Below are positions 5,238 to 61,132 of a stretch of 64,000 nucleotides of DNA, piece by piece. The notes below the pieces were generated by a model that had not been told where the DNA came from, searched no databases, and was given only the letters and a program-made list of their open reading frames with translations. Source of the stretch: an uncultured Solirubrobacterales bacterium (GTDB lineage Bacteria; Actinomycetota; Thermoleophilia; Solirubrobacterales; 70-9); contig CAWAKV010000007.1 of NCBI GenBank assembly GCA_963782685.1, positions 25,558 through 89,557 of the forward strand, in the 5' to 3' direction. The position numbers and the translations under genes are program-made. The first letter of the stretch is position 1, and each line of letters begins with the position of its first letter.

Positions 5238-5273
5238 CGACTCGATTCTACGAGGGCAGTAGCGTTCCGCGCG

Positions 5274-15732: not shown

Positions 15733-15806
<74 letters not shown>

Positions 15807-15854
15807 GGGGCGGGGCGATGATAGCGGCCCGGTGGCTGCGGTCGCCCGCCTACT

Positions 15855-17481: not shown

Positions 17482-17501
17482 GGGCGGCAGACTATTCGGC
17501 C

Positions 17502-18131: not shown

Positions 18132-18156
18132 CGTCCGTAGTACCTCTCGCTGTGAA

Positions 18157-18218
18157 GGGAGCATTCGGTGGGGGTGGAACGTCTTGTACTTTAAGTGGAA
18201 CCCCCACCGAATGCTCCC
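18157..18218. repeat. perfect 18-bp inverted repeat with a 26-nt AT-rich loop, abutting the jag stop
   Basis: GGGAGCATTCGGTGGGGG (18157-18174) / CCCCCACCGAATGCTCCC (18201-18218). Direct repeat GTGGAAC at 18174-18180 and 18195-18201, spanning the loop and overlapping the stem junctions by 1 nt. Confidence 0.8.
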
Positions 18219-18700
18219 TACTCCGACACCAGCGGGGCGACCACGACGCAGCGCCGGGGCTCGTCGCCTTCGCTGAAGGTCTCGACGCCGGAGCGATCTT
18301 TGAGGTGTTCGTGCACGACGCGCCGTTCCTGCGCGCTCATCGGGTCCATCTCGACCGAGACGTTGCCGTCCAGCGCCTGCTCCGCGGCCCGGTCCGCCCG
18401 CGCGGTGAGCACCTCCCGGCGTCGCTCGCGGTAGCCGGAGGCGTCGAGCACAACCCGCTTGCGGTCTCTCAGCCCGCGGAAGGCCGCCTGGAAGCAGAGC
18501 AGCTGGAGCGCATCGATCGTCTGCCCCCGTTTGCCGATCAGCAGCCCGTAGTCGTCCTCGCCGGAGATGACGGCTTCGATCCGATCGTCGTCCTCGCGGA
18601 TCTCAACCTCTCCCTCCAGGTCAAGCTCGTCCAAAACCCCCTCCACGAGCTCCTTCACCCGCTCAGCGGGCTCCTCCGGCCACTGCGTCTCAGCACTCAC
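18218..18700 (-). CDS. jag: Jag/KhpB-like RNA-binding protein (KH + R3H)
   Basis: GTG 18700; ..GLLIGKRGQTIDALQ.. (KH GxxG) and ..MSAQERRVVHEHL.. (R3H); conserved position after yidC. Confidence 0.8.
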   Translation of the reverse strand: MSAETQWPEEPAERVKELVEGVLDELDLEGEVEIREDDDRIEAVISGEDDYGLLIGKRGQTIDALQLLCFQAAFRGLRDRKRVVLDASGYRERRREVLTARADRAAEQALDGNVSVEMDPMSAQERRVVHEHLKDRSGVETFSEGDEPRRCVVVAPLVSE

Positions 18701-18743
18701 ACCCGGCACCCTATTCCAGCCGGCGAAGCTCGTGGGGACAGGG

Positions 18744-18874
18744 GGCGGGGAGAGTCTCCGGAAGTGCCTCGCGAAGCGGCCACGGCTGAGTGACTCTTGC
18801 CGCGAAGCGGCAGCGACATAGTGAGCGGAGCGCCAGCGAAGCGAACATAGGCAGCTTCCGGAGACTCTCCCGCC
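18744..18874. repeat. 131-nt palindromic intergenic element (25-nt arms, three GCGAAGCG motifs)
   Basis: GGCGGGGAGAGTCTCCGGAAGTGCC (18744-18768) pairs with GGCAGCTTCCGGAGACTCTCCCGCC (18850-18874). GCGAAGCG at 18771, 18802 and 18836. Core GTGAGC..CGAAGCGAACATAGGC resembles the 58.3/59.3 kb elements. Confidence 0.75.
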
Positions 18875-18891
18875 GCCTGGCAGAGCTTCCG

Positions 18892-19644
18892 TTACTTGCG
18901 CCGCTTCTTCTTTTTGGGTGGAGGCGGCGGCGGCTTGGCTGCTGCGACCTGCGCTGGAGTGGGCACCTCGGGAGCTGGGATCAGTTTCTGGATCGTGTAC
19001 TGCTGGCCGATCGTCCAGACGTTGGTGGTGATCCAGTAGAGGACGAGGCCGGCGGGGAAGCTGATCACGAAGGGGACGAAGACGAAGGGCAGGATGAACA
19101 TGATCATCCGCTGGCTTTTGTCGGCCGTGACGGCCATCACCAGGCCGGAGATCAGCTGGGTGCCGACGTAGAGGATGAGCAGGGCGATCAGTTCGCCCCC
19201 AGTGGCCTTCGCGGTCAGGTCGCTGATGAAGAGGAAGGACGCTTCGCTGCCGCATTCACCGGCTTTGCAGCCGATGTCGTCGGGCAGCTCCTCTTTGAGG
19301 ACGAAGAAGAGGGTGATGAAGACGGGCAGCTGGGCGAGCAGCGGAATGCAGGAGGCAAAGGGGTTGACTTTGTTCTCCTGGTAGAAGCGCATCATCTCCT
19401 GCTGCATGCGTTTCTGGTCGCTCTTGTACTTCTCTTTGATCTCTTTCAGCTGCGGCTGGAGAGCCTGCAGGGCCCGCATCCCTTTCAGCGATTTGTAGGT
19501 GAGCGGGATCAGCAGCGCCCGGGTGACCACCGTGAGGGCGATGATCGACATCCCCCAGCTGAGCCCGACGCTGTCGTGGAAAAATTCGAGGACCGAGTTG
19601 CCGACGTCGATCAGCGGCTGGAGGACGTTCGCGACTGGGATCAT
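18892..19644 (-). CDS. yidC: membrane protein insertase YidC
   Basis: ATG 19644 overlaps the yidD stop (ATGA); ..IALTVVTRALLIPLT.., ..KVNPFASCIPLLAQLPVFI.., ..PAGLVLYWITTNVWTIGQQ.., basic tail KKKKRRK. Confidence 0.9.
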   Translation of the reverse strand: MIPVANVLQPLIDVGNSVLEFFHDSVGLSWGMSIIALTVVTRALLIPLTYKSLKGMRALQALQPQLKEIKEKYKSDQKRMQQEMMRFYQENKVNPFASCIPLLAQLPVFITLFFVLKEELPDDIGCKAGECGSEASFLFISDLTAKATGGELIALLILYVGTQLISGLVMAVTADKSQRMIMFILPFVFVPFVISFPAGLVLYWITTNVWTIGQQYTIQKLIPAPEVPTPAQVAAAKPPPPPPKKKKRRK

Positions 19645-19919
19645 GAGTGGGCTCCGTGGTGGCGGTGGTACTCGCTCGGGTCGATCGGGCCGACGCGGAG
19701 GGTGAAGCGGTCGGGAACGGGGTCGAAGCCCCCGTGGCTGAGCGGGTTGCAGCGCAGCAGGCGCCAGCAGGCGAGCAGCAGGCCGCGGAACGGGCCGAAG
19801 CGCCGGATCGAGTCGGTCGCGTATTCCGAGCAGGTCGGCTCGTAGCGACAGCGCCGGGGCATTGCGGGGGAAACCCAGCGCTGGTAGGCGGCAATCGGGG
19901 CCAGGAGAACCCGTTTCAC
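19641..19919 (-). CDS. yidD: membrane protein insertion efficiency factor YidD
   Basis: ..YQRWVSPAMPRRCRYEPTCSEYA..RLLRCNPLSHGGFDPVP. Confidence 0.9.
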   Translation of the reverse strand: MKRVLLAPIAAYQRWVSPAMPRRCRYEPTCSEYATDSIRRFGPFRGLLLACWRLLRCNPLSHGGFDPVPDRFTLRVGPIDPSEYHRHHGAHS

Positions 19920-19926
19920 GTGGAAC
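19913..19926. promoter_or_regulatory. parS-like ParB binding site
   Basis: GTTTCACGTGGAAC matches 13/14 of the core of the widespread parS consensus (tGTTTCACGTGAAACa). It lies on the rnpA stop / yidD start overlap, 3 kb from parAB. Confidence 0.55.
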
Positions 19927-20287
19927 GCTCCCCCGGATCGGTGTGCGCGAGCGCCTCTTCAAGGCTGACCCTTACCCCGTCGATCCCGTCGCGCTCGATC
20001 AGGGCGCCAATCTCGGGGCGGGCGACGAGAACGAAATCGTGGCACTCAGGCAGCCGCTCCGAAAGGGCCCAGAAGGCTTCGCGCAGGGTCCGCTTGACGC
20101 GGTTGCGGTCGACCGCGCCGCCGACCTTGCGGCTGACCGAGACCCCGAGGCGGACGTCGGCCGCCTCCTCATCCTTGCGCGGGAAGCTATAGAGCACGAG
20201 ATAACGGGTCGCGTGGGAGGAGCCGTCGCGATAGACACGGTCGAACTCGGCACTGCGCGAGAGCCGGCGTCGCTTTGCCGCCATCAC
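19916..20287 (-). CDS. rnpA: ribonuclease P protein component
   Basis: Intact 123 aa; ..RLSRSAEFDRVYRDG..VSVSRKVGGAVDRNRVKRTLREAF..; follows rpmH. Confidence 0.9.
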   Translation of the reverse strand: MMAAKRRRLSRSAEFDRVYRDGSSHATRYLVLYSFPRKDEEAADVRLGVSVSRKVGGAVDRNRVKRTLREAFWALSERLPECHDFVLVARPEIGALIERDGIDGVRVSLEEALAHTDPGERST

Positions 20288-20309
20288 CCGAACCCGACTA
20301 TGGCGACCG

Positions 20310-20447
20310 TCATCCCGGAGTGAGGCGTTTCCGGCCTTTGGCCCGCCGCCGCTTCAGGATCGCGCGCCCACCGCGCGTCCGCATCCTCGCCCGGAACCCG
20401 TGGGTCTTGGCCCGCTTTCGCTTCTTCGGCTGGTAGGTGCGCTTCAT
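20310..20447 (-). CDS. rpmH: 50S ribosomal protein L34
   Basis: [45 protein letters not shown]; ATG 20445-20447. Confidence 0.95.
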
Positions 20448-20579
20448 TGGCCGTCGCAGTATACGGACGCGGCGGGGGGTGGGCCGGCGGTGCCGAGTCA
20501 ATCGCCTGAAATCATTTCCTCGGCATTTGCGACTCCCTCTGGTTTGGCTCTCCCGGGGCGCCGCTATCGTCGCTCGGCG

Positions 20580-21911
20580 GTGCCCGACCAGCCTGCCGAA
20601 CAGAACCTCGACGCCATCTGGGAGGACGTCCGGCGGCGCCTCCGGGCAGCCGTACCGGACTCGACCTTCAAGATCTGGCTGGAGCCGCTGCGGGCCGTCG
20701 GTGCCCAGGGCACGACGCTCTACCTCGCCGCGCCCGACGGGATCCGCACCTGGGTCGAGCGGCGCTACTCGTCGCTGCTTCGCGAAGCGCTCGCCGGGGG
20801 CGACTCGGCGCTGGGCGAGATCGCCTTCTCCGACAGCGCCGAGAAACGGCCAGGGGGGACGGATTCCGCGCCCAGTGTGGAGCTCAACCCCAACTACACA
20901 TTCGAGCGCTTCGTGATCGGCGAGGGCAACCGCGTCGCCCACTCCGCGGCTCTGGCCGTCGCCGAGACCCCGTCCGAGGCCTACAACCCGCTCTTCCTCC
21001 ACGGCCCGCCGGGGCTCGGTAAGACGCACCTGCTCGGTGCGATCGCCAACTACCTGCGCCTCAACGCGCCGGCTCTGAGCGTCCGCTACACCACGGCCGA
21101 GTGCTTCACCAACGAGTTCGTCGGCGCTCTGCGCTCAAGCGGGGCCGAGCTGTTCAAGAGCCGCTACCGCGACCTCGACGTCCTGCTCGTCGACGACATC
21201 CAGTTCCTGCAGGGCAAGCAGCACACCGAAGAGGAGTTCTTCCACACCTTCAACGCCCTTTATGAGGGCGGCAGCCAGCTCGTCCTCTCGGCCGATCGCC
21301 TGCCGAGCGAGCTCTCGACTCTAGAGGTACGATTGCGCGACCGATTCGAGTGGGGCCTGACGATCCCGGTCGAGGCGCCCGACCTGGCCACCCGCCTCAC
21401 CGTCCTCCAGCGCCTCGCTCGCGAGGCTGGGCTCGAGACCGAGGACAGCGATGCCCTCTCCGAGCTCGCGCAGCGCATCGACGCCAACGTCCGTCGCCTG
21501 CACGGCGCCCTGACCAGGGTCATCGCCCACGCCTCGCTCACCGCCAAGCCGCTCAGCCCGGAGCTGATCGCCGAGGTCATCCCCAGCCGGAGCCGGGAGA
21601 GCGAGCCCACCACGGTCGAGGAGATCCAGCAGCGGGTGGCCGCCTCCTTCGGCATCTCACGAGCCGAGCTGGTCGGCACGAGCCGTGCCGCGACACCGTT
21701 GCGGGCGCGGCAGATCGCGATCCTGCTCACGCGTGAGGCGACCGATCTCTCCCTCCCCCAGATCGGCCGCCTCTATGGCGGGCGCGACCATTCGACCATC
21801 CTCAACTCGCTGCGGCGCGTCGAAACCACGCTCGCCGGCGACACCGAGCTCGCCCGCCAGGTGAGCGACCTGCGCTCCTCTATCCACAGCCCCCCGACCG
21901 AAACGGCCTGA
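20580..21911 (+). CDS. dnaA: chromosomal replication initiator DnaA
   Basis: ..[17 protein letters not shown].., ..LLVDDIQFL.., ..DRFEWGLT.., C-terminal ..[38 protein letters not shown]... GTG 20580 is tentative (in-frame TTG 20544 also possible). Confidence 0.95.
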
Positions 21912-22045
21912 CCGCCGCCGCCACTGTAAGAATCAATGCTTTCCCCAGCGGACTCCACAGCCTGAAAATCCCATGACCATGCCGATTTCCGATGGTCGCA
22001 GCCATATCCACAAGCACTAACCCAACTCAAGAGGACATCAGTCAT
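21912..22045. other. candidate oriC core / dnaN promoter region (dnaA-dnaN spacer)
   Basis: Lower-G+C 134-nt spacer with a DnaA-box-like aTATCCACA (22004-22012, 8/9 to TTATCCACA) and a weaker ACTCCACAG (21952-21960). No such box in the rpmH-dnaA spacer. Confidence 0.35.
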
Positions 22046-23152
22046 TTGAAGCTGACCACCAAATGCAACGAGCTCGTCTCCAAGCTCTCGATCGTCTCGC
22101 GTGCCGTCTCGACTCGTGCCGCGACTCAGGCGCTTTCGGGGATTCTCCTCACCGTCTCCGAGAGCGGCGTCGCGCTGGCGGCGACCGATGGCGAGATGGG
22201 ACTTCGCACCGAGATGGAGGCGGACATCGGCGGCCCCGGCTCGGTCCTGCTCCCAGGCCGGCTCCTCGCCGACCTCGCCCGCTCGCTGGGGGAGGTCGAC
22301 GTCGAGATCGAGCTGCGCGAGGCCGAGCGCGACGTGGAGATCCGCAGCGGCGGCTCCAGCTTCCACCTCCGTGTCCTCCCTGTCGAGGATTTCCCCAACC
22401 TCCCCGACGAGGGCTCCGAGCCGCTGAAGATCCCGGCGCCGGCCCTGGCCGAGACGGTCGAGCTGGTCGCCCCCGCCGCCTCGCGCGACGACATGCGCCC
22501 CGTTCTCACCGGCGTGCTGGTCACCGCCGCCGGCCAGGAGATGACGATGGTCGCCACCGACTCCTACCGTCTCGCGGTCAAGCGCACCGAGCTGGAGAGC
22601 GCGATCGGCGGCGAGCTCGAGGCCAATATCCCGGCCAAGGCGCTGCGCGAGCTGGGCCGGCTGGTCGCCGGCGAGGAGCTCGACGAGGTCGCCGTCAGCC
22701 TGCTCCCCAACCAGGCCGTCTTCAGGGCAGGGTCGATCCTCCTCAACACGAGGCTGATCGATGGCCAGTTCCCCAACTTTCGACAACTCCTGCCGGAGTC
22801 CTACGAGCACGACGTGCGCCTGCCGCGACCCGAATTCCTCGAGGTCGCCCGCCGCGTCAGCCAGCTCGCCCAGCGCAATGCGCCGCTGCGCCTCTCCTTC
22901 TCGCCGGGCGAGCTGAAGGTGTCGGCTTCGACGCCCGACGTCGGCGACGCCGAGGAGACGATGCCGGCGGCGTTCGAGGGGGAGCCGCTGGAGATCGGCT
23001 TCAACCCGGAGTTCCTGCGCGACGGGATCGAAAGCGTCGAGGGCGACGAGGTGGTGCTGCGGCTGATCTCGCCGCTTCGCCCGGGTCTGCTTCAGCCGGT
23101 CGACAACGAAGACTTCCGTTACCTCGTGATGCCGATCCGCCTCAACGTCTAG
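22046..23152 (+). CDS. dnaN: DNA polymerase III beta sliding clamp
   Basis: AAGAGGA then TTG 22046 (LKLTTKCNELVSKLSIVSRAV..); ..ATDGEMGLR.., ..MVATDSYRLA.., ..LRLISPLRPGLLQP..YLVMPIRL. Confidence 0.9.
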   Translation: MKLTTKCNELVSKLSIVSRAVSTRAATQALSGILLTVSESGVALAATDGEMGLRTEMEADIGGPGSVLLPGRLLADLARSLGEVDVEIELREAERDVEIRSGGSSFHLRVLPVEDFPNLPDEGSEPLKIPAPALAETVELVAPAASRDDMRPVLTGVLVTAAGQEMTMVATDSYRLAVKRTELESAIGGELEANIPAKALRELGRLVAGEELDEVAVSLLPNQAVFRAGSILLNTRLIDGQFPNFRQLLPESYEHDVRLPRPEFLEVARRVSQLAQRNAPLRLSFSPGELKVSASTPDVGDAEETMPAAFEGEPLEIGFNPEFLRDGIESVEGDEVVLRLISPLRPGLLQPVDNEDFRYLVMPIRLNV

Positions 23153-23162
23153 CGGGGAGCCG

Positions 23163-24251
23163 GTGCGGGTCGCCGCCGTCGAAGCGAGGCCACTGCGCAG
23201 TCTGAACGGCGTGCGGGTCGAGCTGGGCGAGGGCATCGTCAGCCTGATCGGCCCCAACGGCACCGGCAAGACGAACCTGCTCGAGGCGCTCTACTTCGCC
23301 CTCACCGGCCGCTCCTTCCGGACCTCGGACCGGCGCGAGCTGATCCCCTTCGGCGGCCAGCTGGCCCGCGCCGAGGCCGTGGTCCGCGACGAGGACGGCG
23401 TCGAACACCGCCTTCTCGCCGCGGTCAGTCGCACCGAGGGGCGGCGCCACCTGCTCGACGGCAGCCCCGCGGAGCCGACTGTGCTGGCCCGGCACCGCCC
23501 CCCAGTCGCCGTCTTTTCACCCGACCGCCTGACCCTGATCAAGGGCCCGCCGGGCGAGCGCCGCGCCCACCTCGATCGTTACGTCGCCGCTCGCTGGCCC
23601 TCTCGCGCGGCGCTGCGCCAGCGCTACGGCCAGGCGCTGGCCCAACGCAACGCGCTGCTGGCCCGCCTCGCCACCGGCCGACCTGGGGGCGACCTGGAGG
23701 TCTGGGACGCGGCCCTGGCCGAGGCGGCCGAGGCCCTGATCGCGGCCCGGGCGGAGGCCGTCGCCGAGCTCGCCGCACCATTCGCCGCCTCGGCGGACGA
23801 GCTCGGCCTGGCCGGAGGCGCGACGCTCGCGTACGCACCGCGGGCGTCGGGATCGGCCGAGGAGATTCGCGCTGGCCTCGGTGAGCGCCGCGACGCCGAT
23901 CTGCGTCTCGGCCGCACCTCGTGGGGGCCGCACCTGGATGAGCTGAAGATCGAGTCGGCCGACAAGTCGTTGCGGCGCTACGGCTCGCAGGGCCAGCAGC
24001 GCATCGCCCTCCTCTCCCTGCTCTTCGCCCAGCGCGAGGCGCTGCTCGACGCACGCCGTGTGGCGCCGCTGCTTCTGCTCGACGACGTGATGAGCGAGCT
24101 CGATCCGCAGCGGCGCGAGCGCCTGGTCGAGCGCCTCGCTGGGGGCGGCCAGGCGCTGATCACGGCGGCGGCCGAGGAGTCCGTGCCACCGCGGGCGCTG
24201 GAACGCCGCGTCCGGGTGCCGTTCGATGTCGTTCGCTCCGCGGCGGCATGA
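23163..24251 (+). CDS. recF: DNA replication/repair protein RecF
   Basis: Intact; Walker A GPNGTGKTNLLEALYF, ..GSQGQQRIALLSLLFA.., ..LLLDDVMSELD.. Confidence 0.9.
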   Translation: MRVAAVEARPLRSLNGVRVELGEGIVSLIGPNGTGKTNLLEALYFALTGRSFRTSDRRELIPFGGQLARAEAVVRDEDGVEHRLLAAVSRTEGRRHLLDGSPAEPTVLARHRPPVAVFSPDRLTLIKGPPGERRAHLDRYVAARWPSRAALRQRYGQALAQRNALLARLATGRPGGDLEVWDAALAEAAEALIAARAEAVAELAAPFAASADELGLAGGATLAYAPRASGSAEEIRAGLGERRDADLRLGRTSWGPHLDELKIESADKSLRRYGSQGQQRIALLSLLFAQREALLDARRVAPLLLLDDVMSELDPQRRERLVERLAGGGQALITAAAEESVPPRALERRVRVPFDVVRSAAA

Positions 24252-24547
24252 GTCGACGGCCCGCTCCCCGTCCCGCCTCGGCGGCATTCCGCACGGCGCT
24301 CGAGCGAGCCGCGCCGAAGACGCGCTTGGCGGCGGTGCAGGCGGTCTGGGCCGAGCTGGTGGGCGAGCGCATCGCCGACGTCGCGCGGCCGGTATCCGAA
24401 CGTGACGGCGTGGTCACGGTCGCCTGCTCGGACTCCGTCTGGGCACAGGAGCTCGATCTGATGCAGGAGCAGCTCCAGCAGCGCCTGGTTGAGCGGCTCG
24501 GTGCTGAGGCGCCGCGCGGCTTGCGGTTCCGTGCCGAAGACGGCTGA
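24248..24547 (+). CDS. DUF721 (DciA-like) protein
   Basis: ATGA overlap with recF; ..LAAVQAVWAELVGERIADVARPVSERDGVVTVACSDSVWAQELDLMQEQL..; conserved recF-gyrB position. Confidence 0.75.
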   Translation: MSRRPAPRPASAAFRTALERAAPKTRLAAVQAVWAELVGERIADVARPVSERDGVVTVACSDSVWAQELDLMQEQLQQRLVERLGAEAPRGLRFRAEDG

Positions 24548-24684
24548 CCCATCCCTGTTTCCGCCTTTGTGCGTAAGGCGACACATTCCCGCCATAATTT
24601 CCCGCGATTTGCAGGTATTTTTTAATCTCGAACCAGGTTTTCGAGGGGGCTGAACTGGTATCCTTATGTCAACTCGGATTTTGG

Positions 24685-24726
24685 CCCCGACCAGGCGCGC
24701 CGATAGCGCCAGGCGGTCGGGGTTTT
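24685..24726 (+). terminator. GC-rich nested hairpin followed by TTTT (terminator or leader attenuator) just upstream of gyrB
   Basis: CCCCGACC(24685-24692)-AGGCGC GCCGATA GCGCC AGGC-GGTCGGGG(24715-24722)-TTTT(24723-24726). It lies 138 nt after the DUF721 stop and 24 nt before the gyrB TTG. Confidence 0.4.
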
Positions 24727-24749
24727 CTGTGAGACGCGGAAAGGACCAG

Positions 24750-27181
<2,432 letters not shown>

Positions 27182-27193
27182 GGGGGATCGCTG

Positions 27194-29725
27194 ATGGCGC
27201 TCGAGGCCCTGACGGGCAAGATCGAAGAGCGCGAGCTCGAGAAGGAGATGCGCTCCTCCTACCTCGATTACGCGATGAGCGTGATCGTCGGCCGGGCGCT
27301 GCCGGACGTGCGCGACGGGCTGAAGCCGGTCCACCGGCGGGTGCTCTACGCGATGCACGACATCGGCCTGCAGCCGACCCGGCCCTACCGCAAGTGCGCC
27401 TTCATCGTCGGCGAGGTGATGGGCAAGTACCACCCGCACGGCGACTCGGCGATCTACGACACGCTGGTGCGGATGGCGCAGGAGTTCTCGCTGCGCTACA
27501 CGCTGATCGACGGCCAGGGCAACTTCGGCTCGATCGACGACGACCCGGCTGCCGCGATGAGGTACACCGAGGCGCGGCTTGGGCGGCTGGCGACCGAGCT
27601 CCTGCGCGACATCGACGCCGACACGGTCGACTTCGGGCCCAACTACGACGAATCGACGCAGGAGCCGCTGATCCTGCCGGCGCGCTTCCCGAACCTGCTG
27701 GTCAACGGGGCCTCGGGGATCGCGGTCGGGATGGCGACCAACATCCCGCCGCACAACCTGCGCGAGGTCTCCGCTGCGGTCACCGCCTACATCGACGACC
27801 CCGCCATCGACCTGGCCGGCCTGATGGAGCACGTCAAGGGCCCCGACTTCCCCGGCGGCGGGATCATGAGCCTGGAGGGGATCCGCGACGCCTACGCCTC
27901 CGGCCGCGGCACGGTCAAGGTGCGCGCCCGCGCCCACGTCGAGCCGCTCAAGGGCGGCAAGGACGCGATCGTCGTCACCGAGCTGCCCTTCATGGTCAAG
28001 AAGGGTGGCGACAACGGCCTGATCACGAAGATCGCCGACCTCGTCCGCGAGAAGAAACTGGAGGGGATCTCCGACCTGCGCGACGAGACCGACCGCTCCG
28101 GCATGCGCCTGGTGATCGAGCTGAAGCGCGGCGGCCAGCCGGCCAAGGTCGTGCTCAACAACCTCTACAAGAAAACCGGGATGCAGACCAGCTTCGGGAT
28201 CAACATGGTCGCGCTGGTCGACGGCGTGCCGCGCACCCTGAGCCTGCTCGAGCTGGTCAAGTACTACGTCCAGCATCAGCGCGAGGTCGTCACCCGCCGC
28301 ACCCAGTACGAACTGCGCCGCGCCGAGGCCCGCGCCCACATCCTCGAGGGGCTGCTGATCGCGCTCGACAACCTCGACGCGGTGATCAAACTGATCCGCG
28401 GCTCGAAAGACCCGGACGCGGCCCGCGACGGCCTGATCGAGAAGTTCGAGCTCTCGCGCGAGCAGGCGCAGGCGATCCTCGACATGCGCCTGCAGCGTCT
28501 CACCGCGCTGGAGGCCGACAAGGTGCGCGCCGAGCACGCCGACCTGATCGAGCGGATCGGCGAGCTGCGGGCGATCCTCGGCGACGAGGCGAGGGTGCTC
28601 GGCCTGGTCAAGGAGGAGCTGGCGGAGATCGTCCAGTCCTACGGCGACGAGCGACGCACCGAAATCGCCCACTTCGAGGGCGACGTCGGCATCGAGGACA
28701 TGATCGCCGACCAGCAGATGGTGATCTCGCTGACCGCGTCGGACTACGTCAAGCGCCTGCCGCTCGCCACCTACCGACAGCAGCGCCGCGGCGGCGTCGG
28801 CGTGATGGGGATGAACCTGAAGGAGGACGACTACATCGCCCACCTCCACATCTGCTCGACCCACGACTACCTGCTCTTCTTCACCAACCGGGGCAAGGTC
28901 TACCGGCTCAAGGTCTACGAGCTGCCGGAGGGCTCGCGGACGGCGAAAGGCAGCGCGCTGGTCAACCTGCTGCCGCTGCGCGAGGGCGAGCGGGTGATGG
29001 CGGTGATCCCCACCCGTGACTTCAAAGAGAACAAGTACCTCGCCTTCGCGACCGCCAAGGGCATGATCAAGAAAACCGAGTTCCTCGCCTACAACACGCC
29101 GATCCGCGCCGACGGGATCATCGCGATCAAGGTCCGCGACGGCGACGAGCTGGTCCAGGTGCGGCTGACCTCGGGCGAGGACGACCTGCTGATGGTCTCC
29201 AAGTCCGGCCACGCCTCGCGCTTCTCCGAGGACGCGGTGCGGCCGATGGGCCGCGACACCTCCGGCGTCAAAGGGATGAACGTCTCGGCCAAGGTGGGCC
29301 GCGAGGCGAACCGCGTGCTGGCGATGGACGTCGCCCGCGACGACACCGAGCTCTTCGTCGTCACCGAGAACGGCTACGGCAAGCGCACCTCGATCGCCGA
29401 GTACCCGGTCAAGGGCCGCGGCACCAAAGGCGTGCTGACCGCGAAGCTGACCGAGAAGAAGGGCGGCCTCGCCGGCGCCCTGATCGTGCGCGAGCACCAG
29501 GATCTGCTCTTCATCTCCCAGAACGGCATGGTGCAGCGGACCGAAGCCGGCGGCATCTCGCTGATGGGTCGCCCGACCCAGGGCGTCCGCGTGATGAACA
29601 TCAAGGACGACGACCGCGTCAGCGCCGTCGCCCTGGTTGTCGAGTCGAGCGAGTCCGACTCCACCGACGACGGCCCTCCCCCGGAGGGGATTCCGGGGGT
29701 CGAGGGAGAGGCCGTCGACAGCTAG
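27194..29725 (+). CDS. gyrA: DNA gyrase subunit A
   Basis: Intact 843 aa; ..[43 protein letters not shown].. and C-terminal beta-pinwheel repeats. Confidence 0.95.
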
Positions 29726-31649: not shown

Positions 31650-32156
31650 CTATGCGGCGACGGGTAGGTACTGCTGCCAGGCGGGTGGGATGTTGGGGCT
31701 CGCCACCTGGATGAAGATGCTGGGGCCCGGCGCCTTCGGTGACTTCTTCGGGTGCATCTGGATCTCGCGGGGGAGACGGTTGCCCTTGCGGCGGTTGCAG
31801 CTCGCGCAGGCGGCGACGATGTTCTCCCAGACCGACTTGCCACCGCGGCTGCGGGGGATTACGTGGTCGACCGTGAGGCCGGACTTGGTCGAGCCGCAGT
31901 ACTGACAGGTCCAGGCGTCCCTGGCGAGCACGGCACGCCGGGTGATCTTGCGCCGGTGCGCCTCGCGCGGCACCCGCACGTAGCTGACAAGGCGGATCAC
32001 GTCGGGCCGGTCCATCGTCATGTGCTCCGAGTGGATCGCCCCCTCGCGCCGCTCCAACAGCTCGGCTTTCTCCTTCAGCAACAGCACAGCAGCTCTTCTC
32101 AACGTGCAGACGTTGATCGGCTCATACGTCGCATTCAAGACAAGCACTCGTGCCAT
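31650..32156 (-). CDS. HNH endonuclease family protein
   Basis: ..WTCQYCGSTKSGLTVDHVIPRSRGGKSVWENIVAACASCNRRKGN.. (CxxC..DH..N..CxxCN). Confidence 0.8.
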   Translation of the reverse strand: MARVLVLNATYEPINVCTLRRAAVLLLKEKAELLERREGAIHSEHMTMDRPDVIRLVSYVRVPREAHRRKITRRAVLARDAWTCQYCGSTKSGLTVDHVIPRSRGGKSVWENIVAACASCNRRKGNRLPREIQMHPKKSPKAPGPSIFIQVASPNIPPAWQQYLPVAA

Positions 32157-32190
32157 CTTGCTCGGGAATTCTACGCAGGCGGCGGGAGGG

Positions 32191-32227
32191 GAGGGCAGGG
32201 CAGCTCCGCTGGAGCTGCCCTGCCCTC
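32191..32227 (-). terminator. perfect 17-bp GC-rich hairpin 3 nt after the pheA stop (no U-tract)
   Basis: GAGGGCAGGGCAGCTCC (32191-32207) - GCT - GGAGCTGCCCTGCCCTC (32211-32227). Confidence 0.45.
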
Positions 32228-32230
32228 ACG

Positions 32231-33068
32231 TCAACCAACCGGGTAGGAACCTAGGATCCGCACGGACTCGGCCTTTTCGCCCAGCGCCGCAAGCGCCTCC
32301 GAGATAGCTGGATCGTCGATCGCCGCCTTCGAGGTCGCAGAAGAACATGTAGCGGCCGAGGCCCTGCCGCAGCGGCCGCGACTCGATCCGGCTCAGGTTG
32401 ACGCCACGGCTGGAGAACTCCTGGAGGGCATCGACCAGTGCGCCCGGGTGGTCGGCCCCGAGCTCGGAGAAGACGAGCGAGGTTCGCCATGGGCCGCCGC
32501 CCTCCGGCGCGGTGTCGGCGGGGGCGATCCAGACGAAGCGGGTGACGTTGTCGGCGTCGTCCTCGATGCTCTCGCGCAGGACCGTGCAGCCGTAGAGGTC
32601 GGCCGCGGCCCGCGCGCCGATCGCCGCCCAGGGTCGCACCGACTCGCCGACCATGCGCACCGCCTCGGCGGTGCTGCTGACGCTGCGCCGTTCGACCCCC
32701 GGCAGGTGCTCGCGCAGGAAGCCGGCGCACTGGGCCAGCGGCTGAGGGTGCGAGAGGATCGCCGAGACCTGCTCCAGCTCGACTCCCTCGCGGGCGATCA
32801 GGTGGGCGTGCACGCGGAAGTCGTGCTCGCCGACGATCGTCACCGCCTCGGTGTCGAAGGCCAACGTGTCGAGCGTGCTCCGCACCGACCCCTCGATCGA
32901 GTTCTCGAACGGCACCAGCGCCCGCTCCGCCTCGCCCCGCTCGACCGCCAAGATCGCGTCGTGGACCGTCGGCATCCGCAAAGCCTCGATCTCCTTACCC
33001 GCAGGAAGCGCCTCCCGCAGCGCGTCTTCGGTGAAGGTACCTGCTGGTCCTAGGAAGGAGATTTTCAT
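32231..33068 (-). CDS. pheA: prephenate dehydratase; one frame break
   Basis: MKISFLGPAGTFTEDA.., ..TRFVWIA.., ACT domain ..GALVDALQEFSSRGVNLSRIESRP... Removing a surplus base near 32323 restores ..YMFFCDLEGAIDDPAISEALAALGEKAESVRILGSYPVG* (TGA 32231-32233). Confidence 0.85.
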
Positions 33069-54744: not shown

Positions 54745-56621
54745 ATGCACCGGTTGAACCACCCCGTCTACCGCAACCGGGTACTCCAGGTCGCCGCCGA
54801 CGCGCTGCTCGTCGCGCTCGCCTTCTACCTGGCGTTCCGCCTGCGCTTCCTCGACGAAGGCCTGCCGGCGCGCTACGAGACTCTCTTCCTGCAGGCGGTC
54901 GCCTTCGTCGCCGTCGGCAAGGTCGCGGTCTTCGCCGCCTTCGGGCTCTACCAGAAGTGGTGGCGCTACGTCAGCGGCCGCGACTTCCTCACGATCGTCC
55001 GCGCCGTCGCCGTCGCCAGCGCGATCCTCGTCGTCCTCTTCACCGTCGCTGCAGCCCTTCGAGATCGGCCTGCCGCGCTCGGTCGCGGTGATGGACTTCA
55101 TGCTCACCCTGTTCCTGATCGCCGGCGCCCGCCTCGCGGTGCGGCTGATCGTCGAGCGGCCGACCCACGGCCACCGCCTGCCCAAGCACGAGGTGCTGGT
55201 CATCGGCGCCGGCTCCGGCGGTCAGATGGTCGTCCGCGAGATGCACCTCAACCCGAACCTGGGCGCGACCGCGATCGGCTTCGTCGACGACGACGCGCGC
55301 AAGCAGGGGATGCGGATGCTCGGCCTCAAGGTGCTGGGGACGACGGCGCAGATCGAGACGATCCTCGACGAGACCGAGCCCGACGAGGTCGTGATCGCGA
55401 TCCCCTCGGCGCCGGGGACGCTGCGAGCCAGGGTCGTCGCCGCCTGCCGGGAGCGCGAGATCCGCGTTCGCACCCTGCCGACCGTGTTCGAGCTCTTGCG
55501 CGGCGGCGTCCAGCTGAGCAAGCAGCTGCGCGAGGTCCAGGTCGAGGACGTGCTCGGCCGCGACCCGATCGTGGTCGAGCTCGACCGCGTCGGCGCCTAC
55601 CTGCGCGACCGCATCGTCCTCGTCACCGGCGCCGGCGGCTCGATCGGCTCCGAGCTCTGCCGCCAGATCGCCCGCGTCGGGCCGCGCCTGCTGGTGATGC
55701 TCGACCACGCCGAGGACAACCTCTTCGAGATCGAGCGCGAGATGGTCGACGAGCGCCACTTCAGCAACGTCGAGGCGGTGCTCGCCGACTGCAAGGAGCC
55801 GCACCGGATGCTGGAGACGATGCAGCGCTTCAAGCCGAGCGTCGTCTTCCACGCCGCCGCCTACAAGCACGTGCCGCTGATGGAGGCCAATCCGCTCGAG
55901 GCTGTGCGCAACAACGCGATCGCGACCCGGATCACCGCCGAGACCGCCGCCGCCTCCGACGTCGAGCGCTTCGTCCTGATCTCCACCGACAAGGCGGTCA
56001 ACCCGCAGACGGTGATGGGCGCCTCGAAGGCGATGGCCGAGTGGATCGTCGAGACCGCCGGCCACAAGCACCCCGAGCACGCGCTTCGCCAGCGTCCGCT
56101 TCGGCAACGTGCTTGCCTCCTCTGGCAGCGTCGTGCCGATCTTCCGCGGCCAGATCGAGCGCGGCGGTCCGGTCACGGTCACCCACCCGGAGATGACCCG
56201 CTACTTCATGACGATCCCCGAGGCGGTGCAGCTGGTGATCCGCGCCGGCGACATCGGCGCCGGGCGGGGCGAGGTCTTCGTCCTCGACATGGGCGAGCCG
56301 GTGAAGATCGTCGACCTCGCCAACAACATGATCAGGCTCGCCGGCTACGAGCCGGGCGCGGAGATCGCGGTCGAGTTCACCCAGCCGCGGCCCGGGGAGA
56401 AGCTGCACGAGGAGCTCTTCGGCGGCGGCGAGGAGCTGCGGCCGACGGCGGCCAAAAGGATCCACCGCGCGGTCCGCGAGGCGCCGCTCGACCCCGAGTG
56501 GGTCGAGTCCACGCTGAACTCGCTCGAGCACCTGGTCATGGCCGGCGACGAGGCCAATCTGGCCGAGCGGGTCGTGGCGCTGATCGCGAGCCCCGGTGGC
56601 GACGCGGCGGCAGTCGGCTAA
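54745..56621 (+). CDS. membrane-anchored polysaccharide biosynthesis protein CapD/PglF/WbpM-type NDP-sugar 4,6-dehydratase; two frame breaks
   Basis: N-terminal TM block, ..[10 protein letters not shown].., ..[14 protein letters not shown].., ..HAAAYKHVP.., ..[14 protein letters not shown].., ..[16 protein letters not shown]... Breaks near 55070 and 56090. Confidence 0.8.
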
Positions 56622-56656
56622 GCGCCCGGTTAACGGATAGCCTCTCGCAGCCACCC

Positions 56657-57431
56657 TTGGAGTTGCTGAAGGAAATCGGGGCTTTCGCGGGCTTGGTCGC
56701 CTTCCTCGGCCTGGCCGTCCTCGCCCTGCTCTCGTTCGCCCAGGGGCGCGACATCCGCCGCCTGCGCGAGTGGGCGGGCTCGGCGCCGGAGCGCGACAAC
56801 GAGCGCAAGGAGGCGACCTCGGCCGCAGCGGCCGAGCGGGCCGAGGAGATGCGCACGCTGGAAGAGGCACGCGATGCCGAGCGCGCGTCGCCGCGCGGGC
56901 CTGCGCGAGGCCGGTCTGCCCGAAACGACGCGCAGCGAGCGCCTGCGGGAACGCTTCGCCAGGGACGGCGGAGACAGCGGTGGGTTCGGCAGCAGGCTGG
57001 GCGAACCGCGCTACCTGGTGGCGATCTTCGTCGTCCTCGCCCTGGCCGCAGGCGGCATCGCCTATGCGGTCTTGGCCGGCTCCGACGACGAAGCGGGCGG
57101 CAAGCCCGGCAAGCAGGCTTCGCAGGCGGTCAAGCCGAGCGAAATCGAGGTGACCGTGCTCAACGGAACCGCCGTCGACGGCCTTGCCGGCACCTACGGC
57201 GACATGGTCGAGCGCAAGGGCTTCCAGCTCGGCGCGGTCACCAATAGCCGCTCGAGCTTCTCCGACAGCGTCGTCATGTTCGAGCAGGGCAACGGCCGCG
57301 AGGCGCACCGGGTGGCCACGGCGCTGGAGATCTCCCGGGTGCGGCCGATGAACGCGGAGATCGCCTCGCTCTCGGCCGGCGCTCCGGTCGCGGTCGTGAT
57401 CGGCGAGGACAATGCCTCGTCGACGGGTTAG
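56657..57431 (+). CDS. LytR_C-domain membrane protein; one frame break
   Basis: TTG 56657 (tentative); TM ..YLVAIFVVLALAAGGIAYAVL.., then ..IEVTVLNGTAVDGLAGTYGDMVERKGFQLGAVTN..VVMFEQGNGREAHRVATAL... Break near 56880. Confidence 0.6.
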
Positions 57432-57898
57432 CGCAGCAGCAGTCGTCTTCGCCCTGCTCGTCATCGCCACGATCGCGGTCTTCGCCTGGTCGCAGCGGCT
57501 GAAGCGCGATCCGCTGGTCCTCGACCGGGTCAGCTTCGTCGTCGGTTCCGCGCGTCAATCTCGATGCTCCGCCGGTCCGCGCCTTCACCCCCAACCGCGA
57601 CTGCCGTTTCGATCGCATCCGCATCCGCTTCCGCGTTACCCAGTCCGACCGTGCGCACGTGCAGATGGTGAAGCCGGGCGGCAAGCTCGTCGTCACCCTC
57701 GCCCGCGACACCTACCTGAAGCGCTACCGCTTCCACACCTACTACTGGGACGGTCGCGTACGCAATGACGGCAAGGCCCCACCCGGCCGCTACAAGCTGC
57801 GGGTCAAACTGCTCAGGCAGGACCGCACCCTGGTCCCCGGCGGCGTCATGCGCCTGCACGAAGCGCCCCGCCGTCCAGCCCGGGAGTGCAGCCGTTGA
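57412..57898 (+). CDS. membrane-anchored hypothetical protein (Ig-like beta domain?); one frame break
   Basis: MPRRRVSAAAVVFALLVIATIAVFAW.., then ..VRAFTPNRDCRFDRIRIRFRVTQSDRAHVQMVKPGG..YYWDGRVRNDGKAPPGRYKLRVKL... Break near 57545. Confidence 0.4.
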
Positions 57899-59572
57899 TC
57901 CTCTCCGCGGTGGGGGTCCTCGCAGCCGCAGCAGCCGGCGCCGCGGCGATCCTGCTGCCCCCGGGCCGCGCCCGTGCGGCGGCGATGCTGCTCGCGCTCG
58001 CCCTCTTTCCCGCTGCTGATCCTCGGCGACCAGTGGAACTCCCCCAGATCGCCGACCTGCGCGACGACTCCGTGCGCCTCGTCGCCCTCGGGCTCGCCGC
58101 GCTGGTCGCCGCCGGAGCCCTCGCCGCTGCCTTCCAGCGCTGGCCGATCATGCTGCCGCTGGCGATCGTCGCCGCGCTTCCCTTTCGCGTTCCACTGGAG
58201 GCCGGAGGAGACACCGCCAACCTGTTAGTGCCGCTGTACCTCGTGATTGCCGGTGGAGTCCTCTCTACGGCGCTGCGCGAATGGCGAGATGCCGGGGATG
58301 TTCCGCTCCAGGGACAAAGGGTCGGGGTTCCCCCCTGCGGGAACTCTGTGAGCCGCCCCCGGCAAGAACCCAGAAGGCCGCCTCAGCGCGGGTTCCCGAA
58401 GAGGGGAACCCCGACCCTCTTGCTGCCGTATGTCCTCGCCGGAGTCGTCCTTCTGTACGCCGTTCAGACGCTGTACTCGCCTGACTTCTCGAAGTCGCTA
58501 CAGAACGTGTGCTTCTTCTTCGTGCCGTTTTCGCTGGTGTACGCGCTGCTCCGGGATGTGAGGTGGGACAGCGAGGCTGCTGAAGCTGGTGCTGTGGGTG
58601 GTCGCCGTCGAGGCGGTGGCGTTCGTAGCTGTGGGGAGCATCGAGTACGTCAGCCGCGAGCTGTTCTGGAACGACCAGGTGATCAGGTCGAACGAATTCC
58701 ACACTTACTTCAGGGTGAACTCGATCTTCTGGGACCCCAACATCTACGGGCGTTACCTGGCGCTCGTGATCGTGATCGCGATGTCGGCGCTGCTCTGGGC
58801 GAAGGAGCGGAAGACGTTCGCTTTGCTCACTGGGCTGGTGGCGGTGCTCTGGCTGGGGCTGGTGCCCACCTTCTCCCAGTCGAGCTTCGCGGCGCTGTTG
58901 GCGGGGCTGGCAGTACTCGCCGCACTGCGCTGGAGCTGGCGTTGGACGCTCGCGGCTGTAGGAGCTGGAGCCATTCTTGGAATCGTCGTCGTCCTCTTCG
59001 CCGGCGGCGTCTCGAAGCTGAGCCCGGACCGCTTCAACGTCGACACCGGCGGCCGGGCCAACCTCGTCTCGGGCGGCACCGACCTCTTCGCCCAGCGCCC
59101 CATCTGGGGCTACGGCTCAGGCAGCTTCCCCCGCGCCTACCGCGAACACATAGCAACGAAAAAAGCTCCAGTGTCCGTATCGCACACGGAGCCAGTAACC
59201 GTGGCAGCCGAGCAGGGCCTGATCGGCCTAGCGGCCTACGCAGCCCTTCTCGTAGTAGCGCTATGGACCATGAGCCACCGCCTGAGCTGGGCAGGGGGAC
59301 GGGGTGTCCCCCTGCGGAAACTTGTGAGCCGCCCCCGAAACGAACACAGAAGGCCGTCTCAGCGCGGGTTTCCGAAGGGGGACACCCCGTCCCCCAGCGC
59401 GGGTTGCAGGTGGGGGACACCCCAGCCCGAGCCGCAGTACTCGCAGCCTTCGTGGCCTTGCTAGTTCACACGCATGGCCTACGCCGGCTTCTACGAGGAC
59501 CCAATCACCTGGGTCCTGCTGGCAGTGGGAGCCTCGCTGGCGACCGTGCCCGCGGTCCGTCCCGCCGCTTAG
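57886..59572 (+). CDS. O-antigen ligase/polymerase-like (Wzy_C-type) membrane protein; frame breaks and two embedded palindromic elements
   Basis: Polytopic; ..ALPFRVPLEAGGDTANLLVPLYLVIAGG.., ..RVNSIFWDPNIYGRYLALVIVIAM.., ..TFSQSSFAALLAGLAVLAAL.., ..GGTDLFAQRPIWGYGSGSF... Ends ..MAYAGFYEDPITWVLLAVGASLATVPAVRPAA* (TAG 59570-59572). Confidence 0.6.
58318..58418 (+). repeat. nested palindromic element, copy E1 (read in frame within the O-antigen-ligase-like CDS)
   Basis: Outer arms AGGGTCGGGGTTCCCC (58318-58333) / GGGGAACCCCGACCCT (58403-58418); inner arms CGGGAAC / GTTCCCG; core ..TGTGAGCCGCCCCCGGCAAGAACCCAGAAGGCCGCCTCAGCGCGGG.. Confidence 0.8.
59296..59428 (+). repeat. nested palindromic element, copy E2, plus a partial duplicate of its 3' arm
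   Basis: Outer arms GGGACGGGGTGTCCCC (59296-59311) / GGGGACACCCCGTCCC (59378-59393); inner arms CGGAAAC / GTTTCCG. 59395-59428 repeats CAGCGCGGGTT..GGGGGACACCCC. Confidence 0.8.
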
Positions 59573-59582
59573 GCTCACCGCC

Positions 59583-61132
59583 GTGTCGGGCTACCTCCGC
59601 CGCCTAGCGACGACCGGCGCCGCCTACACCGCGGCGAGCATCCTCTCGAAGCTGATCGCGGTCGCCCTGCTGCCGCTCTACACGCGCTACCTCACGCCGC
59701 GCCGACTACGGCGCCGCCGAGGTCCTCTTCGCCGCCGTCGTCGCCGCCAGCATCGTCATCCGCTTCGGCGTGATCGAGGCCGTGCTGCGCTTCTACTACA
59801 AGGCCGGCGAGGACCGCAGGCCGGGTCGTCGCCACCTCCTTCGCGGCCCTCTTCTGGTTCGGCACCGCGGCGGCGCTGATCGCGCTGCCCTTCGCCGGGC
59901 CGATCTCCGACGCGCTGCTCGACCGGCTCGCCGCGTCCCGACCTGACCCGGATCGCGATCGGCGGCCTCTGGGTGCTGACCCTGCACGAGTACCTGCTGA
60001 CCCTGTTCCGGCTCGAGGAGCGCGCCCGCGCCTTCTTCCTGGTGACGATCGCCAACGTCCTGGCGGCGATCGCCCTCACCGTGGTCCTGGTCGTCGGCGA
60101 GGACGAGGGCGCCCGCGGCCTGCTGCTCGGCAGCTACGTCAGCGGCGCCGCCTTCGTCCTCGGCCTGATCGTCGTCCACCGGCGCCGCCTCTCGCTGCGC
60201 TTCGAGCGGCCGCTGCTGCGGCGGATGCTGCGCTTCGGCCTGCCGACGATGCCGGCCGAGCTCTCGCTCTACGCGCTCAACTTCGTCGACCGGATCATCA
60301 TCGTCCGCACGGTCGGGCTGGCCGAGGCCGGTCTCTACTCGCTCGCGGTCAAGTTCGCCCAGGCGGTCAACGTGCTCGTCCGCGGCTTCCAGCTCGCCTG
60401 GCCGCCGCTCGCCTACTCGATCCGCGACGACGACGAGGCGCGCCGCGCCTACGCCGCGGTCGTCACCTGGTTCCTCGCCGCCTGCGCCTTCGTCGTCGCC
60501 GGCATGTGGCTGCTCTCGCGCTGGATCGCCCGCGCCCTCGCCGCACCGGAGTTCTTCGACTCCTACGAAGCCGTCGGGCTGATCTCCACGGCGGTCACCC
60601 TCTACGCCCTCTACATGGTGCTGCTGGTGATCCTCGGCCGCACCGGGCCGCACCGAGTTCAACTTCCCGGCGACCGGCGCGGCGCTGGTCGCCAACGTCG
60701 TCCTCAACCTCGTCCTCGTGCCGCCGCTGGGCATCGTCGGCGCCGGCCTCGCCCTGGTCGCCTCCTACGTCGTCGTCGTCGCGCTGATGTACGGCTTCAC
60801 CCAGCGCCTCTTTCCCGTCCCCTACGAATGGGGCCGGCTGGCGCGGATCGTGCTCGTCACCGCGGCCCTGGTCGCCCTGGGCGAGCTGCTCTTGCCGACC
60901 GACGGAATCCGCCGCCCTCGCCGCCCGAGTCGCCCTCTGGCTCGCCTACCCGCTCGTCCTCCTCCTCAGCGGCTTCTTCACCGCCGAGGAGCGCGGCTGG
61001 CTGTCCCGCCTCCGTCACCCGAGCGAGCTGCTCGAGCGCTACCGCGCCGCTCGCGAACGCCCGGCCGTAGTGGACGGTGCTCTACCGGAGGCCTACGAGG
61101 CGGAGATCATGGACGAGGACTCGCGCCACTAG
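59583..61132 (+). CDS. Wzx-like oligosaccharide flippase (MOP superfamily); about five frame breaks
   Basis: GTG 59583; ..AYTAASILSKLIAVALLPLYTRYLTP.., ..FGLPTMPAELSLYALNFVDRIII.., ..LVLVPPLGIVGAGLALVASYVVV... +1 steps near 59700, 59820, 59930, 60650 and 60905; TAG 61130-61132. Confidence 0.6.

Follow-up and report, generated by a model that had tools for sequence, protein, structure and literature searches.

Within a 64,000-nucleotide stretch of DNA from an uncultured bacterium of the order Solirubrobacterales (hereafter, the window), the gene for an O-antigen ligase/polymerase-like membrane protein of the Wzy_C type contains two palindromic elements of about 100 nucleotides, E1 and E2. [quoted passage not shown] The peptides specified by E appear to be accommodated as 30 to 35 extra loop residues that are read in frame with the host protein, and the two loops concerned are hot spots at which elements are gained, lost to arm remnants, flipped, extended, or replaced by members of other families (F, G and J). 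An earlier note on this DNA had described E1 and E2 as in-frame palindromes of about 100 nucleotides with compensatory changes in their stems and had likened them to RPEs, and this core reading holds through the refutation tests that had been proposed along with it.

Two palindromic elements in a Wzy_C gene

The relevant features of the window are as follows:

57886 to 59572, forward strand: host gene, encoding a Wzy_C (O-antigen ligase/polymerase-like) polytopic membrane protein, broken by several single-nucleotide frame shifts
58318 to 58418, forward strand: E1, full E-family element with its core forward and inverted arms (covariance model R1, 106.6 bits, full length)
58318 to 58344, forward strand: 5' arm of E1, a variable outer stem plus the inner stem CTGCGGGAAC (27-nucleotide inverted repeat, 93% complementary)
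58345 to 58391, forward strand: central region of E1 between the arms, with invariant columns in alignments of 8-9 copies
58392 to 58418, forward strand: 3' arm of E1, an inverted repeat whose outer end merges into the host codons ..TLLLP..
59295 to 59394, forward strand: E2, full E-family element with its core forward (R1, 101.2 bits, full length), read as ..GRGVPLRKLVSRPRNEHRRPSQRGFPKGDTP..
59395 to 59428, forward strand: half-element that repeats the 3' core end and 3' arm once more in tandem (CAGCGCGGGTTGCAGGTGGGGGACACCCCAGCCC), direct repeat of 34 nucleotides

The conserved asymmetric core of E1 (58339-58395; ..TGTGAGCCGCCCCCGGCAAGAACCCAGAAGGCCGCCTCAGCGCGG..) comprises the central region and the adjoining inner-stem bases. 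The junction at the 3' arm of E1 was compared with those in the related loci L007, L009 and L001, and the predicted fold carries the stem on into the flanks. The arms of E2 (59291-59321 and 59368-59398) are 31 nucleotides long and 94% complementary. Positions 58325-58417 of E1 and 59301-59393 of E2 form a 93-nucleotide direct repeat that is 78% identical when aligned without gaps; the cores reach 86% identity in a gapped alignment, close to the roughly 85% that had been estimated by eye. The 64-kb window contains exactly two occurrences of a 23-nucleotide core motif for which chance would predict none. The partial duplicate of the 3' arm that had been reported downstream of E2 is real and exhibits 82% identity to 59360-59393. 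Both peptides given in the earlier note were reproduced, with E1 and E2 being read in the same element phase. The window reads E1 in frame as ..RVGVPPCGNSVSRPRQEPRRPPQRGFPKRGTP.., and the host frame is kept around it as had been claimed, the distance from anchor to anchor being 291 nucleotides (0 mod 3). An example of an insert peptide is GVPLRKLWSPPRKEPKRPPQ.

That the elements reside inside an O-antigen-ligase-like coding sequence is borne out by a Pfam Wzy_C match at 58589-59464 of the window (E = 3.8e-15) and by the open reading frames (ORFs) of orthologues that are 70-93% identical to the host gene. The 291-amino-acid ORF of the window corresponds to the database protein P0001, which is encoded on a 144.5-kb contig and whose nearest relatives are proteins from metagenome-assembled genomes (MAGs) of Solirubrobacterales (Actinomycetota, Thermoleophilia). 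The caveat that the host gene contains frame breaks was justified, since the ORF table reveals at least five frame changes (near 58010/58045 and 58566, within the E2 region, and at 59472); at the last position, an extra C is present in 'cacacgCatggcc', where all orthologues read CACACGATGGCC. Single-base frame breaks are frequent across the adjacent CapD-like, Wzy-like and Wzx-like genes (window positions 55088-61100, with a further example around 59700-59940) and are not confined to homopolymers. The frame breaks of the window, including the one at E2, look like uncorrected indels of a long-read assembly rather than biology. Because so many other single-nucleotide breaks are found in the host gene and its neighbours, frame arguments drawn from the window alone are weak, and the claim that the elements are read in frame is therefore built on other assemblies.

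A covariance model of E was built from eight copies. It recovered 13 full-length copies, which score 84-111 bits (76-111 bits at the widest), along with two that are truncated by contig ends (one of these at 44 bits). These 15 DNA copies span 10 assemblies from independent short-read and long-read projects, and no further copy was found by the model in about 207 kb (the window and the related loci). They are distributed over three kinds of sites:

E1 site, 7 copies: core forward in the window and L018; core reverse in L001, L007, L009, L014 and L015
E2 site, 7 copies, all with the core forward: window, L001, L007, L009, L017, L018 and L019
Unlinked intergenic site, 1 copy: L006, upstream of a Ppx/GppA-like gene (110.7 bits, full length), in the same MAG as L009

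The Mb-scale MAG that contains L009 and L006 thus possesses three E copies, two in the Wzy_C gene and one between genes. Copies other than E1 and E2, for which the earlier note had called as a check, are accordingly present and include the unlinked intergenic one; the multi-copy dispersed family that it had implied did not materialize, as E is of low copy number and almost confined to one gene. Nor does the hairpin at 18744-18874, which had been pooled with E1 and E2, belong to the family: it is a different palindromic element, and the E model finds no match there at E <= 1. A phmmer search with the E2 peptide of the window against 1.84 billion protein representatives revealed no other host protein; it returned the window's own protein and two repetitive ones, P0121 (an unrelated eukaryotic repeat protein) and P0122 (E = 1.3e-4). 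A profile search with the E peptides (both readings concatenated) against 5.8 billion proteins gave nothing at E <= 10 and is uninformative, probably through the short length of the query and the composition correction. No match to E1 was found by blastn among 72,556 plasmids.

The E copies are 100-102 nucleotides long, with arms of 27-31 nucleotides that are 93-94% complementary and a G+C content of 67-78%. Each consists of a conserved asymmetric core of about 55 nucleotides, a short inner stem (CGGNAAC/GTTNCCG) that encloses the core and bears a conserved G.A mismatch, and outer arms of about 20 base pairs that are very different between copies yet complementary within each copy. Core identity between copies ranges from 70 to 98%. 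The arms covary, while the 55-nucleotide core shows roughly the same conservation as the flanking gene; in most copies, the G.A mismatch is located at CTGCGG/CCGAAG. In nine copies aligned with MAFFT in the ordinary manner, 96.4% of the stem cells are paired, as compared with 82% in shuffles and 41-58% with slid partners; two-sided changes occur at 14 of 27 outer-stem pairs, and none of 500 shuffles reaches any of these measures. For the outer helix of 27 bp, pairing amounts to 95.7% across the 13 full copies, with 57 cells being compensated. The three compensatory differences between E1 and E2 that the earlier note had listed are real, and they extend to 14 of the 27 outer-stem pairs in alignments of 9-13 copies. 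Predicted RNA folds of the elements have energies between -67.8 and -102.3 kcal/mol (z = -4.4 to -7.2, on both strands), a stability equalled by none of 200 dinucleotide shuffles.

Reading frame and turnover of the elements in orthologous genes

Fifteen related loci were compared at both sites through conserved peptide anchors. L002 and L011 have no element at the E2 site, and among 84 orthologues that span this site, the loop comprises 9-21 amino acids in 48 proteins and 24-71 amino acids in the other 36. The long loops fall into recognisable peptide types corresponding to E, F, G and J, and others. Hence, the segments in question are not conserved as ordinary protein sequence, 48 of the 84 orthologues having a short, element-free E2 loop.

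The N-terminal portion of about 150 amino acids, the central Wzy_C part and the C-terminal helices belong to a single gene. Intact ORFs run through both elements in L007 (566 amino acids; a short-read MAG) and in L009 (509 amino acids; Mb-scale contigs), and L014 and L015 contain long open stretches that cross the E1 site into the Wzy_C part. Continuous reading in these four assemblies rules out that the flanks are separate genes, the situation that the earlier note had named as refuting its reading, and because single ORFs span both sites, the objection that the elements are merely intergenic falls away as well. The frame is kept at 14 of the 16 occupied sites that could be assessed; the exceptions are E2 of the window and the E1 site of L012, both in long-read MAGs. 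Orthologous E2 copies that are in frame are present in L001, L007, L009, L017, L018 and L019. For the first 14 sites, of which 12 keep the frame, the binomial probability is about 8e-5, and two more in-frame copies were added thereafter. When all six frames are considered, the intragenic E copies contain 0-1 stops, while the intergenic copy contains 2, 2 and 1 in three of the six.

The intact L007 protein has about 15 hydrophobic segments, between which basic loops (PSRAR, R, RDVRWDSRLLK, KERK, RWSWR) alternate with acidic or long ones, among them the 63-amino-acid Wzy_C loop, a loop that is extracytoplasmic in proteins of this family. From the parity of this hydropathy pattern, both insertion sites are predicted to be cytoplasmic inter-helix loops. 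An AlphaFold2 model of P0009, calculated with a 30-sequence alignment, depicts the insert as a coil between two long helices, at low confidence (mean predicted local distance difference test score, pLDDT, of 53.5).

Across the order, these same two loops are occupied by no fewer than four unrelated families of palindromes (E, F, G and J). The F family measures about 115 nucleotides and has the core GCGGCGTCCTGTTTTTCGCA...GGCGAGAGAG...AAGGCGAAAAACCCAGC. Nine genes are occupied at both sites, and the same family is found at both sites in eight of them:

E at both sites: window, L001, L007, L009 and L018
F at both sites: L005 and L013
G at both sites: L012
Exception, F and E: L019, with an F-type end at the E1 site (1-60, cut by the contig end) and E at the E2 site (898-997)

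This concordance is not simply a matter of shared ancestry, since L001 (E/E) and L005 (F/F), which the host-gene tree places as mutual closest relatives, differ in family at both sites. Within genomes, the cores of E1 and E2 are on average 89.9% identical (98% in L001), as compared with 84.3% and 79.2% for cores of the same site in different genomes. The tree of E cores groups them by genome and not by site, which implies that the two copies in one gene exchange sequence.

Copies at the E1 site, with cores of either orientation, meet the host codons for (T/A)LLLPY at one and the same right-hand junction; hence, the core was either inverted in situ or inserted anew at that point. The two copies of a gene are mutually inverted in L001, L007, L009, L005 and L012, and their cores are direct in the window, L013 and L018. 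Tandem half-elements (3' core end plus 3' arm) are present at 59395-59428 of the window, as two 30-nucleotide units that stay in frame in L007, and in an F copy of L010. In L016 (935-975), the E2 loop is encoded by a single arm motif within a short palindrome (GGGCTGGGC-TGGGGTGTCCCCC-GCCCAGCCC), in frame, which is probably the deletion remnant of an element.

The F family is also found outside the Wzy_C gene. Its copies occur at three sites in L013, and F elements lie exactly at the junction of two glycosyltransferase genes (GT4/GT2) in L010 (15100-15214) and L013 (10282-10395). When empty, the same junction is a 4-nucleotide gene overlap (L001, L002, L011 and L012). In L010, the TAG within the F arm GGGGTAGGGG serves as the stop codon of the upstream glycosyltransferase gene, so that the F copy separates two otherwise overlapping genes.

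Maintenance of the elements and competing explanations

We suggest that insertions are tolerated at these two sites because the loops would act as linkers far from the extracytoplasmic catalytic loop, and that selection may remove only those variants that break the frame or introduce a stop. The complementarity of the arms is most likely kept at the level of the DNA, where one arm would be copied from the other by quasipalindrome template switching or by repair within the hairpin, and the same arm-copying process could flip the core. In template switching of this type (Ripley model), replication copies one arm of an imperfect inverted repeat from the other and thereby perfects the repeat; apparent compensatory changes, and even an inversion of the spacer, can thus arise without any selection on structure. 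Such quasipalindrome correction, which the Lovett laboratory has reportedly studied in E. coli, is a mutational process rather than a family of elements; we propose it here as a candidate mechanism of maintenance. Gene conversion between the two copies in a gene would lead to their mutual homogenisation, and it may explain why the same family is found at both sites and why the cores cluster by genome.

Several observations weigh against an interpretation of E1 and E2 as copies of a mobile palindromic family. The family is nearly bound to one locus, 14 of its 15 copies being located in a single gene, and exact-pattern scans yielded only six copies in 185,579 species genomes and two in a metagenome collection. 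Since the patterns detect 60% and 73% of the known E copies, the family is truly of low copy number (an estimated 3-5 per genome), and most copies could be vertical descendants of two old insertions rather than products of ongoing mobility. From one copy to another, the terminal repeats show no conservation of sequence. Two comparisons of filled and empty sites (the E2 site of L010 versus L002, and the GT4/GT2 junction), both with strongly diverged flanks, revealed no clear direct repeat that would represent a target-site duplication. No transposase gene was detected among the 30 ORFs of the window that were scanned with Pfam; the RAYT/IS200-like enzyme (REP-associated tyrosine transposase; REP, repetitive extragenic palindrome) that the earlier note had suggested to look for is likewise missing from this set, which contains no Y1 transposase. 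The host gene of the window is itself frame-broken, through assembly error or as a pseudogene, and the E2 region exceeds the empty site by 113 nucleotides, whereby the frame is lost there. The cytoplasmic placement of the loops derives from hydropathy parity and not from a solved homologue: a sequence search of the PDB with the intact 566-amino-acid orthologue gave no match, and the structure model is poor, as reflected in its mean pLDDT of 53.5. We also infer, rather than observe, the correction of arms at the DNA level, and the five G.U versus one A.C mismatches slightly favour a structure formed by a single strand.

According to a different explanation, E1 and E2 are functional structured elements whose hairpins are selected as single-stranded RNA or DNA, for example to pause ribosomes between transmembrane segments, to stabilise or process the mRNA, or to serve as recognition hairpins of an HUH-type transposase. 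We regard this as unlikely. The very strong covariation with its few mismatches is what such selection would produce, but a palindrome maintained as a duplex yields equal covariation without any RNA function. The preference for G.U over A.C on the core-forward strand (5 to 1, too few to decide) is countered by the fact that the G.U pairs do not follow the sense of the mRNA. While the core and its G.A mismatch are conserved across copies, the E1 site holds the core in either orientation relative to transcription, so that no fixed RNA sequence is presented. Both sites are located directly after a transmembrane helix; however, the unrelated families E, F, G and J are interchangeable there, and over half of the orthologues have an element-free E2 loop. 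The folds greatly exceed those of shuffles in stability, yet no Rfam match rises above noise: at gathering thresholds, the whole window returned tRNA only, without a match at the elements, and at a permissive threshold the elements matched microRNA-precursor models below threshold only, i.e., as generic long hairpins. Finally, no HUH transposase is encoded by the 30 window ORFs.

There is, in addition, a small chance that the paired elements are more than passive passengers and that the two sites form a system of their own. In this scenario, like elements in both cytoplasmic loops would recombine with each other, and the hairpin together with the core might be the substrate of a copying or homing mechanism, so far unrecognised, by which resident palindromes would be targeted and cores exchanged between similar arms.

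It is quite improbable that the elements constitute a recombination or phase-variation module, in which they would bracket the 0.9-kb catalytic segment and switch a surface-polysaccharide gene by inversion (when the cores are inverted), by deletion (when they are direct), or by slippage in C8/G7 runs. Surface-glycan genes are classic targets of phase variation, and the host gene is one of these. The occurrence of the same family at both sites in eight of nine genes, together with their concerted evolution, indicates that the copies do recombine. In five loci (L001, L007, L009, L005 and L012), they are placed in the mutually inverted arrangement that an inversion would need, but the cores are direct in the window, L013 and L018, and all of the 15 loci are collinear, with no inverted or deleted allele being seen. 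The homology available for recombination amounts to about 100 nucleotides at 84-98% identity, and no recombinase gene is adjacent. Homopolymer tracts of 7-8 nucleotides are prone to slippage, and runs of C8, C7 or G7 are present in the E copies of L001, L009, L014, L017 and L018 (e.g., L009 365-464 and 1337-1436). The two frame-breaking cases do fall within elements, but both come from long-read MAGs, and the window has many indels outside homopolymers elsewhere.

Finally, that the elements were never mobile or copied, and instead represent fast-evolving, GC-rich, low-complexity loop code drifting into palindromes, or assembly artefacts of palindromic reads, is highly improbable: although E is almost confined to one gene, its loops are highly variable in length and sequence, and contigs often break at these sites, this view is at odds with the full-length, unlinked intergenic copy in L006 (110.7 bits), the F copies at a separate gene junction, the recovery of the same element in independent short-read and long-read assemblies of different projects, a 55-nucleotide core conserved about as well as the flanking gene while the arms covary, and the existence of empty alleles.

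Related systems, neighbouring features and significance

A non-autonomous, RPE-like palindromic family remains the explanation that we favour, and its likeness to known elements can be specified. In-frame palindromic MITEs are an established phenomenon of which RPEs are the extreme case (PMC10969869). RPEs are in-frame insertions in protein-coding genes, fall into several families, and have no known transposase (PMC10969869, citing Ogata et al. 2000 and 2002). RPEs and E have in common that they are palindromes of about 100-150 nucleotides without coding capacity of their own, are inserted in frame into genes, and add peptide segments that are, for E presumably, compatible with the function of the protein; in both cases, several families exist, no transposase is known, and the filter (proposed for E) is that only frame-preserving insertions into surfaces or loops survive. 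RPEs are scattered over numerous unrelated genes, with 44 insertions in R. conorii, whereas two loops of one gene hold nearly all copies of E, which further differs by its hypervariable, compensating arms around a conserved core, by two copies that evolve in concert, and by the mutual replacement of families at the same sites. A homology of sequence is implausible, as the two groups belong to unrelated phyla and E has about 70% G+C as opposed to the AT-rich Rickettsia. The comparison drawn in the earlier note is supported by the orthologue, frame and copy data as a functional analogy: E works like an RPE but is no member of the RPE families.

With other MITEs (Correia, ERIC, Nezha, BOX and others), E shares the small size, terminal inverted repeats, a strong hairpin, and both intergenic and intragenic copies. 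MITEs are known for occasional in-frame fusions and for effects on neighbouring genes (PMC10969869), to which the stop codon supplied by an F element in L010 may be compared. In contrast to MITEs, the terminal repeats of E vary from copy to copy, its copy number is very low, and no parent insertion sequence is found among the 30 window ORFs. Its architecture is the opposite of the standard MITE, in that a conserved core is enclosed by variable arms instead of terminal repeats being conserved. REP sequences are extragenic and occur in high copy number, and most of them have GTAG or CGTC as a tag at one of their ends (PMC3733652). E resembles them, and the REPINs of about 100 nucleotides that are formed by two inverted REPs, in being a GC-rich hairpin. 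The REP-type comparison made previously nevertheless finds no support, since E is intragenic and of low copy number, its arm ends (AGGGTC.., GGGGAC.., GAGGGCC.., GCGTGA..) lack a conserved tag such as GTAG or CGTC, and no RAYT gene was seen in the window. No report of such elements in Thermoleophilia was found in the literature.

Two further candidate identities were rejected. Intrinsic terminators are excluded, as neither element is followed by a T run and both are located inside a continuous ORF in orthologues. The stems of integron attC sites follow the pattern RYYYAAC/GTTRRRY; the inner stems of E read CGGNAAC/GTTNCCG, and no integrase was found.

The hairpins also leave their mark on assemblies and annotations. 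In L001-L004, L016, L018 and L019, short-read contigs terminate within the E1-site element, and L010 has a scaffold gap (a run of N, 9900-10000) exactly there; 51 of 55 orthologue protein predictions start within 45 amino acids of the E1 site. The hairpins thus break short-read assemblies and split gene calls, and this gene family is therefore systematically mis-annotated in soil metagenomes.

Other features of the window and of the related loci deserve mention. Positions 15733-29722 of the window represent a chromosomal origin gene cluster, with the Wzy-like gene about 36 kb from dnaA:

15733 to 15806, reverse strand: tRNA gene
15858 to 16796, reverse strand: parB
19919 to 20353, reverse strand: rnpA
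20235 to 21908: dnaA, followed by dnaN, recF, gyrB and gyrA

Between parB and rnpA lie two hairpins, 18156-18219 (perfect 20-nucleotide arms around a 24-nucleotide loop) and 18744-18874 (131 nucleotides, with the arms GGGGAGAGTCTCCGGAAG and three GCGAAGCG motifs); neither is matched by the E model, and they hence belong to different families. An HNH endonuclease ORF (31653-32225, reverse strand) adjoins a terminator-like hairpin with 22-nucleotide arms (32186-32232). On the reverse strand, 1815-5300 is a stop-free stretch of 1162 codons with ALAD, NirDL-like/AsnC-like and class-III aminotransferase domains in one frame; these probably correspond to three neighbouring genes of the haem pathway between which no in-frame stop occurs, or to genes that have lost their stops. 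The locus L011 contains a gene for an IS110-family transposase (PF02371; 1342-2082) 8 kb upstream of the Wzy-like gene and, in a spacer between genes of the same cluster, a 79-nucleotide palindromic element of yet another family (18087-18165).

Palindromic elements that are read in frame have been regarded chiefly as a Rickettsia peculiarity, and they are found here in free-living, high-GC soil Actinomycetota. About 100 orthologues of one membrane protein amount to a natural experiment, with two loops that lack an element, contain members of different families, contain flipped or extended copies, or retain only remnants. Should the two sites indeed operate as a system, the outcome would be either a surface-glycan enzyme that is switched reversibly or a new, transposase-independent way in which small palindromic DNA spreads. 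The Wzy_C genes of the Solirubrobacterales allow one to study how proteins absorb selfish DNA, to test whether arm complementarity is due to correction at the DNA level or to selection, and to examine how two copies within one gene are homogenised.

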